Shown here in pieces: positions 3,662 to 5,385 of a stretch of DNA of 56,704 nucleotides. The DNA lies in assembly GCA_021432655.1 (NCBI GenBank), contig MU271189.1, positions 124,001-180,704 of the forward strand, read 5' to 3'. Positions within the stretch are counted from its first letter, which is position 1; each line of letters starts with the position of its first letter. The notes under the pieces were generated by a model that was not told the DNA's origin, did no database searches, and saw only the letters and a list, made by a program, of their open reading frames with translations. The translations under genes and the position numbers were made by a program. Source of the DNA: Atractiella rhizophila (lineage: Eukaryota).

Positions 3662-5385
3662 CTGCTTCTTTTTCTCGTAGCTCTGCGTGGTAGTGTTGAA
3701 ACTCGAGTCTGAAACCAACGTGGTAAAGTGAAATTTGAATAGAAAACCCTTTAAGGAAGCCCCCCAACTACTCTCCTCACCGACTCTCTTTGAACGCACG
3801 TCGCGAGTCGAAAAATACTCCCTACTACAGCCAAACGTAGTCAGTCTAACGTGTTCACCTCCCGTCGGAGGTGAAGCGACTGAAGCCGCTGGACTGCTAG
3901 CCCTCGTCCACCTAGCTTAGCTGAGGCCCACCTACATAATAACCCTCTACGTGTTGACCTCAACCCCTCACCAGCACGTAACTAATTGATAGCCGCCGAT
4001 GTCATTAATCGTCGTATCCTTTTGACTACCCACGGTAGTACTGTATAACTTGCTAGACCACCAGGTTTATATCCTTCGTTACAGTCCTAACGCCCACTCT
4101 TGTGAAAACTAAACAACGAAGAACTGTACTTTCACATGAGCTAAGCCATACTTGGGCAAGCAAGCCTTTTTTCTTGCTAACGTAACCCTTTCCAAACTTT
4201 TAAACTGTCACCAAGTACTGTAATTCGGATAAACTGTATCGTTCGATCGATACTATAGTCCGTAGTCTTGAGGTAGAGTTTATCAGTGCGAGAATGGGTC
4301 TAGAAACTTGAGAACCAAACGTAATAGTAGCAGACCGGCTTACAGATACACAAGTCGCAGCATTTCTCTGACTAACTTAGAAACTAGACGTTATCTTCGA
4401 ATGCTATCTTATTCGTAATGGCACTTGCTCATCTCTGCTCTCTGTGTGGTTCGTAGCACGCGCAAGCGGAACAATGAGGTGAGATTACACTCCTTTGCTT
4501 TGCGTGTAAGGGCAGACTCGACGAGGTCTCACGAGTTGTGTTGTAGTATAAAACTTCAAGACTTCTAACACCTTGGTCAGAATAGCTGTGTACCGGAGTG
4601 CTACGGGCTCTGTCGCAACGCAACCCAGTTGGTAGTAAGTGAAAACTTCTTTCTTATGCCGCTGCGTCAGTAGTATCCACCAAGGAGGCGGGTTGTATAG
4701 CTTGTTTAGAATTCCTAAACCTCTTCCCTGGAGACGGGCTTGTCCATCACTTCCGCGACCTAGTCCGTACCCTCTAAACGTTCGGACAACGCCGGTTCAT
4801 AATAGTAATTTAGCACTTTACATGTATGGCGCAGTAACATTTGCTAACAATGAAGTAATTGAAGCTCGACATCTACACGTCCATCGGATCATTGATATCA
4901 GATCGGGGTAATGAGCTGTTGTAAGCGTGACTGATAGTGCTTAACAGCGTCGAACTAGACCAGTTCTTCGGCGGTAACCTGCTTTTGCGATCTACATGAA
5001 GCGTCGCTAACTCAGAGGTACTGGACTGCGAAGAATCCATCGATATTTCGAAAGTCGATAAGTCTAGGTCTTCCGCGTTCGCAAAGAGAAGTCTTTAAAC
5101 GATCATGTCGTCACAGCGTCGAGCCCTTTCTTCGCCCTTCACTGAGAGGAACTAGTTATAAACAAATGTAACAAGTGTTAGCCATGTAGCAGTGATCGAT
5201 GACTTTTATAAATCGACGTCGACCGGGATGTCTATAGGGTTCGGACTAGATTGCGGAAGTGATGTAGTAGCCCGTCCCCAGGGAAGAGGTTTAGGAACTC
5301 TAAGACAAGTTACACAAACCACCTCCTTCGCGGCTACTAGTGGCGTAGTGGTACAAGAGAGAAGTAGTCGCTTACCACCGACTGG
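3662..5385. other. Segment written in reverse order without complementation (mirror sequence). Contains the AKR copy 1 3' end, a convergent AKR 3' fragment, a PhzF remnant, and the AKR copy 2 promoter and exon 1
   Basis: Read right-to-left without complementing: 5384-5198 gives [52 protein letters not shown], and 3725-3690 gives [12 protein letters not shown] followed by a GTGCGT donor. The complement of about 4545-4810 read left-to-right gives [44 protein letters not shown]...KPVAAKYYH*. Confidence 0.95.

Follow-up and report, generated by a model that had tools for sequence, protein, structure and literature searches.

A 1.7-kb block of an aldo-keto reductase gene cluster written in reversed, non-complemented order at the edge of an assembly gap

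Reversed sequence in described systems and at this locus

A chromosomal inversion resembles the block described here in that a segment has been turned round where it stands, with a breakpoint on each side. An inverted segment is the reverse complement of the original and matches its paralogues on the opposite strand, whereas this block matches them on neither strand. Biological mirror repeats, i.e., homopurine/homopyrimidine tracts which form H-DNA, share the reverse-only symmetry and are short, of low complexity and self-symmetric. A small example is found at 24704-24743 of the window (the whole stretch of DNA analysed, 56,704 nucleotides). The block, in contrast, extends over 1.7 kb of complex sequence with coding and regulatory parts, and it mirrors a diverged paralogue instead of itself.

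The identical transformation is applied on purpose when genomes are reversed without complementing and used as decoys for false-discovery estimates. According to the RRE preprint (10.64898/2026.04.14.718546), composition is kept in such decoys and biological homology is destroyed. Decoy genomes are made deliberately and kept apart, whereas here the reversal would be accidental and stands inside an assembly. Within the texts covered by a full-text literature search for phrasings of ‘reversed but not complemented’, only deliberate controls and decoys and no report of an assembly artefact were found; such a report may exist elsewhere. With respect to gene content, the closest described group is AKR7, the aflatoxin B1 aldehyde reductase group, which the hidden and the neighbouring genes appear to resemble in Pfam family (PF00248) and nearest structures.

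The sequence 3662-5384 of the window (1723 bp) starts directly after a gap of 902 N and consists of letters reversed in order without being complemented. An equivalent description is a minus strand which was complemented and never reversed. The affected part is this 1.7-kb piece only, within a longer contig which is otherwise written correctly; together with the adjoining N run, this indicates contig extension or patching rather than the backward storage of an entire record. On the true plus strand, the gap is followed by 5384 in descending order to 3662, and the sequence continues from 5385. With a probability of about 97%, the block is genuine genome sequence that was mis-stored by a data-handling step, i.e., an assembly or gap-extension artefact and no biological feature. 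A mirror-image block of about 1.7 kb had been proposed in the first-pass annotation of this DNA, and the proposal was borne out by alignment of the reversed string to aldo-keto reductase (AKR) paralogues, by a composition which runs backwards and by agreement with public sequencing contigs. Direct read support covers only the final 47 nt of the true block; the remainder is supported by paralogue homology and composition. Biologically, the region is ordinary: an intron-rich, fungus-like genome with AKR7-like reductase paralogues in a small cluster. The features of the region are given below in window coordinates; ‘right to left’ denotes pieces of the block which have to be read in descending order.

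469-1187: first N run, 719 N
2349-2759, plus strand: 5’ part of AKR copy 1, ATG at 2349, interrupted by the gap; aligned with copies 2 and 3
2760-3661: second N run, 902 N, in place of an expected 919 bp or so from the middle of copy 1
5384-5211, right to left: last 57 codons and stop of copy 1; the translation aligns to the C-terminus of copy 2
5210-4810, right to left: convergent intergenic spacer, paralogous to about 6850-7230, within the alignment of 842 columns at 89.3% identity
4809-4546, right to left: convergent AKR 3’ fragment, truncated and frameshifted (pseudogene fragment); its paralogue is the 3’ end of copy 3
4545-3938, right to left: unique DNA of 608 bp without a paralogue in the window; only matches of 36 bp and 33 bp
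3937-3726, right to left: promoter and 5’ leader of copy 2; the paralogous stretch before copy 1 is 2158-2348
3725-3690, right to left: exon 1 of copy 2, ATG at as-written 3725; the exon tail is present in a spliced contig of public run X4
3689-3662, right to left: first 28 nt of copy 2 intron 1, donor GTGCGT; present in the loose ends of contigs from public runs X1 and X2
5385-5418, plus strand: last 34 nt of copy 2 intron 1, with the tandem 11-mer GCTGACCTGAG twice at 5385-5406
5419-6849, plus strand: exons 2-11 of copy 2, from the joints of spliced contigs and PF00248
7231-8742, minus strand: AKR copy 3, convergent with copy 2, written correctly, ATG at 8742

Homology and composition in both reading directions

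The block was searched against the rest of the window with blastn, both as written and with its letters reversed without complementing. As written, it gave 0 matches on both strands. In tblastx, the written block likewise gave 0 rows, and all rows came from the reversed reading. These empty searches agree with the earlier statement that neither real strand codes for anything recognisable. The reversed letters gave 7 blastn matches, listed here with positions in the reversed block first:

2-839 to 6665-7496: 842 columns, 89.3% identity, E 0.0
576-839 to 6848-6584: 78.9% identity
1-202 to 7416-7217: 78.2% identity
1448-1700 to 2158-2389 (promoter and exon 1 of copy 1): 259 columns, 68.7% identity
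1658-1706 to 8744-8696 (exon 1 of copy 3): 93.9% identity
two further short matches of 36 bp and 33 bp

The best match falls on 6665-7496, which comprises the convergent spacer together with the 3’ ends of AKR copies 2 and 3 on either side. This alignment is the outcome of the check that had been suggested beforehand, namely reversing 3662-5384 and aligning it to the paralogues. The promoter and the spacer had been said to match 2150-2270 and 6850-7230 in the reversed reading, and the blastn matches of the reversed block overlap both regions.

The block as written could pass for an ordinary inversion, a novel mobile element or orphan DNA, having no recognisable genes and an ORF at 5162-5389 which hit 0 families in Pfam. 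Such an origin is practically impossible, given the absence of blastn matches on both strands as written, the complete loss of the orphan appearance in the reversed reading and the public contigs at the junction (see below). An ordinary inversion was rejected because a reverse complement would match the minus strand, and the block matches neither strand.

As a control, the entire 56.7-kb window was reversed and searched against itself, which returned 13 rows. Twelve of these form 6 reciprocal pairs, every one involving the block. The thirteenth is the tract at 24704-24743, 40 bp of CT-rich low-complexity sequence which mirrors itself and is the sole reverse-only match outside the block. A mirror repeat of the H-DNA kind was also considered for the block and was rejected, since the block is complex and without self-symmetry.

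Direction was further assessed by a composition test which does not use homologues. A strand-symmetric Markov model was trained on the rest of the window, and 400-bp scoring windows were evaluated forward versus reversed at Markov orders 2, 3 and 4, including 262 control windows. The control means were +8.5, +9.2 and +9.4 at orders 2, 3 and 4 (sd 3.9-4.8), and 0.8-2.7% of the controls fell below 0. At order 3, the 6 scoring windows wholly within the block had values of -15.3, -17.0, -11.7, -10.1, -4.4 and -1.5. The test also reaches the 608 bp without a paralogue (3938-4545), which read backwards as well (-17.0, -11.7 and -10.1 at order 3 for the scoring windows starting at 4001, 4201 and 4401). 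The scoring window 4801-5200 is weakly negative within the block (-2.3, -1.5 and +0.7 at orders 2, 3 and 4), and the one at 6801, which covers the correctly written paralogous spacer, is likewise near zero. Thus, the spacer stretch carries little directional signal.

Gene parts in the restored order

Restoring the order places the 3’ end of copy 1 beside the gap. Between the tail of the correctly written part of copy 1 (2562-2750) and 5542-5735 of copy 2, the alignment reaches 72.3%. The counterparts in copy 2 are approximately 5744 for position 2759 and 6664 for the first reversed base. Hence, 5745-6663 is missing from copy 1, i.e., 919 bases compared with 902 N, and the alignment to copy 2 returns the same figure that had been predicted when the 3’ end was first placed next to the gap. 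The C-terminus of copy 1 had been annotated from 5384 to 5198. Its start holds; in the straight frame the stop codon is found at 5213-5211, and skipping one nucleotide that is inserted relative to copy 2 moves the stop to about 5198. In the reversed reading, this insertion occurs shortly before the end of the coding sequence (about 5225-5230 as written), and the C-terminus of copy 1 ends in CRASCS and a stop instead of CRPVAARYYH and a stop as in copy 2. The insertion could be real or an extension error.

The pseudogene fragment has its counterpart on the minus strand of copy 3 at about 7233-7496, and homology stops near 7496. Relative to copy 3, it has a 1-nt deletion, and its reading switches between two frames. 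The claim that the block hides parts of three AKR genes was thereby confirmed, as the 3’ end of copy 1, this fragment and the 5’ end of copy 2 were all recovered.

For copy 2, exon 1 and its donor had been placed at 3725-3662, and the same span was obtained here, divided into the exon (3725-3690) and 28 intron nucleotides (3689-3662). With exon 1 reversed and the exon joints taken from spliced contigs, copy 2 has an uninterrupted reading frame of 326 aa including the start codon. Reversal in place therefore joins everything, as had been expected: an open AKR frame of this length beginning with ATG, a copy-1 3’ end beside the gap and public contigs which agree before 5385. Copy 2 has ten introns, nine of the type GT..AG and one of the type GC..AG. 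The latter (5836-5888, 53 nt) fits a joint in public run X3 with a 2-base slide, and the frame is open only with this intron.

The first-pass annotation had regarded the 11-mer GCTGACCTGAG as a duplicate at the junction. It does stand twice at 5385-5406, but both copies are present in the contigs of runs X1 and X2 with 0 gaps and are not a product of the junction. Thus, intron 1 of copy 2 is 62 nt long in the public contigs and not 51 nt as first annotated. The first introns of copies 1 and 3 measure 49 nt and 51 nt, respectively, the latter at 8656-8706 in agreement with the annotation. The combination of a junction artefact in the tandem with a 51-nt intron was rejected on account of the two copies in real contigs.

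A micro-exon of 6 nt (GGTGCG, 5419-5424) is flanked by introns of 62 and 51 nt in copy 2 and is supported by the X4 contig and the open frame. The same arrangement is found in copies 1 and 3.

Copies 2 and 3 belong to Pfam PF00248 (Aldo_ket_red) with scores of 47.9, 48.4 and 38.0 bits at a gathering cut-off of 24; the E-values for copy 3 were 8.9e-13 and 1.3e-09. The reversed pieces were assigned to the AKRs by alignment to copies 2 and 3. A catalytic Asp-Tyr-Lys-His tetrad is typical of AKRs. The closest solved structures to the C-terminal 137 residues of copy 3, the only part compared, are members of AKR7, namely 2c91_A (E 7.8e-26), 2clp_A, 2bp1_A and 1gve_A.

Through the error, 1.7 kb of normal sequence looks like orphan DNA. 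Copy 2 is deprived of its promoter and of exon 1 with the start codon, copy 1 is cut off from its last 57 codons, and the pseudogene fragment is hidden.

Public contigs at the junction and origin of the error

Public sequencing runs were queried with 3662-7106 of the window, of which the block makes up exactly half. The best runs, X1 and X2, contained 0.43 and 0.42 of the sampled query words; they stem from one DNA sample and were counted once. The X1 contig (record 1) fits 5385-6109 and the X2 contig (record 9) fits 5385-6093, with 2 differing letters and 0 gaps. A loose end of 47 nt precedes 5385 in both contigs, and its 30 displayed letters are the reverse of 3662-3691 (30/30). Thus, what precedes 5385 in real DNA is the block in backward reading. 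The breakpoint is between 5384 and 5385, the first position at which the public contigs agree with the window being exactly 5385. In run X4, the end of exon 1 has the letters of the reversed block (24/25) in a spliced contig, and the micro-exon follows. Depth was 0 in all 14 bins of 3662-5271 in four runs, and this absence of cover was not counted as evidence. From 5387 on, depth was about 150-575 in X1 and 237-1850 in X2. None of the listed runs was an RNA run, which has no bearing on expression.

The two letters in which the junction contigs differ from the window are at 5578 (A>T) and 5999 (A>G), i.e., 2/725 positions. These differences mean either that another isolate was sampled or that base errors are present in the assembly near this contig end. 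The X1/X2 sample may be another isolate or the assembly’s own data. A second set of X1/X2 contigs (records 3, 4, 10 and 13) was found at 6204-6535, with 10/153 and 17/205 letters different and a lower depth. These contigs may supply the stretch missing from AKR copy 1 at the gap, or they may stem from a second allele.

If the X1/X2 sample is not the assembled isolate, as the 2 differences in 725 bp might indicate, the block could in principle be physically present as written, i.e., as a 1.7-kb mirror copy in the DNA of that isolate. This is the sole opening for such a copy, which is extremely improbable. The block begins exactly at an assembly gap, at the junction the public contigs agree with the reversed reading, and the reversed reading preserves a start codon, a splice donor, the frame and promoter homology. 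No polymerase or recombinase is known to make copies which are reversed without being complemented.

An artefact is thus the preferred reading, and its most likely origin is the following. An automated gap-closing or extension step would have lengthened a contig originally beginning near 5385 to the left, into the scaffold gap. These further bases would have been kept in their order of addition (nearest first), or merely complemented, and prepended without being turned round. The N run would then have been shortened by the length of the fill.

The written order puts the base nearest to 5385 first, at the gap edge, which is the order in which bases are added in a leftward extension. The same written order is expected if a minus-strand extension is complemented without being reversed. 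The position of the block at the gap edge, together with a gap length which fits only if the block is counted as fill, suggests that the gap was partly filled from its right flank by an automated procedure. The short-read contigs break 47 nt to the left of 5385, where the sequence becomes common to the paralogues, so the original contig plausibly ended near there and was extended later.

A gap-extension error in software had been named as the cause from the outset. The artefact at the gap edge stands; automated gap closing or extension as its source is plausible and is favoured over a manual or finishing edit. In such an edit, made by hand, during finishing or at submission, a minus-strand read or patch would have been only complemented or only reversed and then pasted on the contig end. 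The outcome at sequence level is identical, and a one-off edit fits the single affected flank among the 4 gap flanks of the window as well as a conditional bug does. An edit of this kind is nevertheless unlikely: 1723 bp exceeds a single Sanger read, and the 902-N run has the length expected after automatic subtraction of the fill (919 predicted), neither of which is decisive.

Similarity searches on the two strands are blind to such blocks. They are detected by the composition test of forward versus reversed sequence or by a reverse-only self-BLAST, either of which would be a cheap quality control for the gap flanks of whole assemblies. The block merits correction, and the rest of the assembly merits a scan for the same error. 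It is a tentative and rather doubtful suggestion, though likelier than a physical mirror copy, that reverse-only gap extensions recur as an unnoticed type of error, both in this assembly and in further ones made with the same pipeline.

In the one window analysed, one gap flank is reversed, and the other three have no reversed composition signal, the lowest scoring window nearby (1401) being at about 0; nothing in this window points to a systematic bug. A second reversed stretch was not found in the window by the composition test, in which the lowest controls reached about -2 to -3.5 and were scattered. The scoring window 1401-1800, a few hundred bases to the right of the first gap, had values of -0.8, +0.5 and -0.5 at orders 2-4. 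This is about 2 sd below the mean and not significant alone; the scoring window 1201-1600 is positive.
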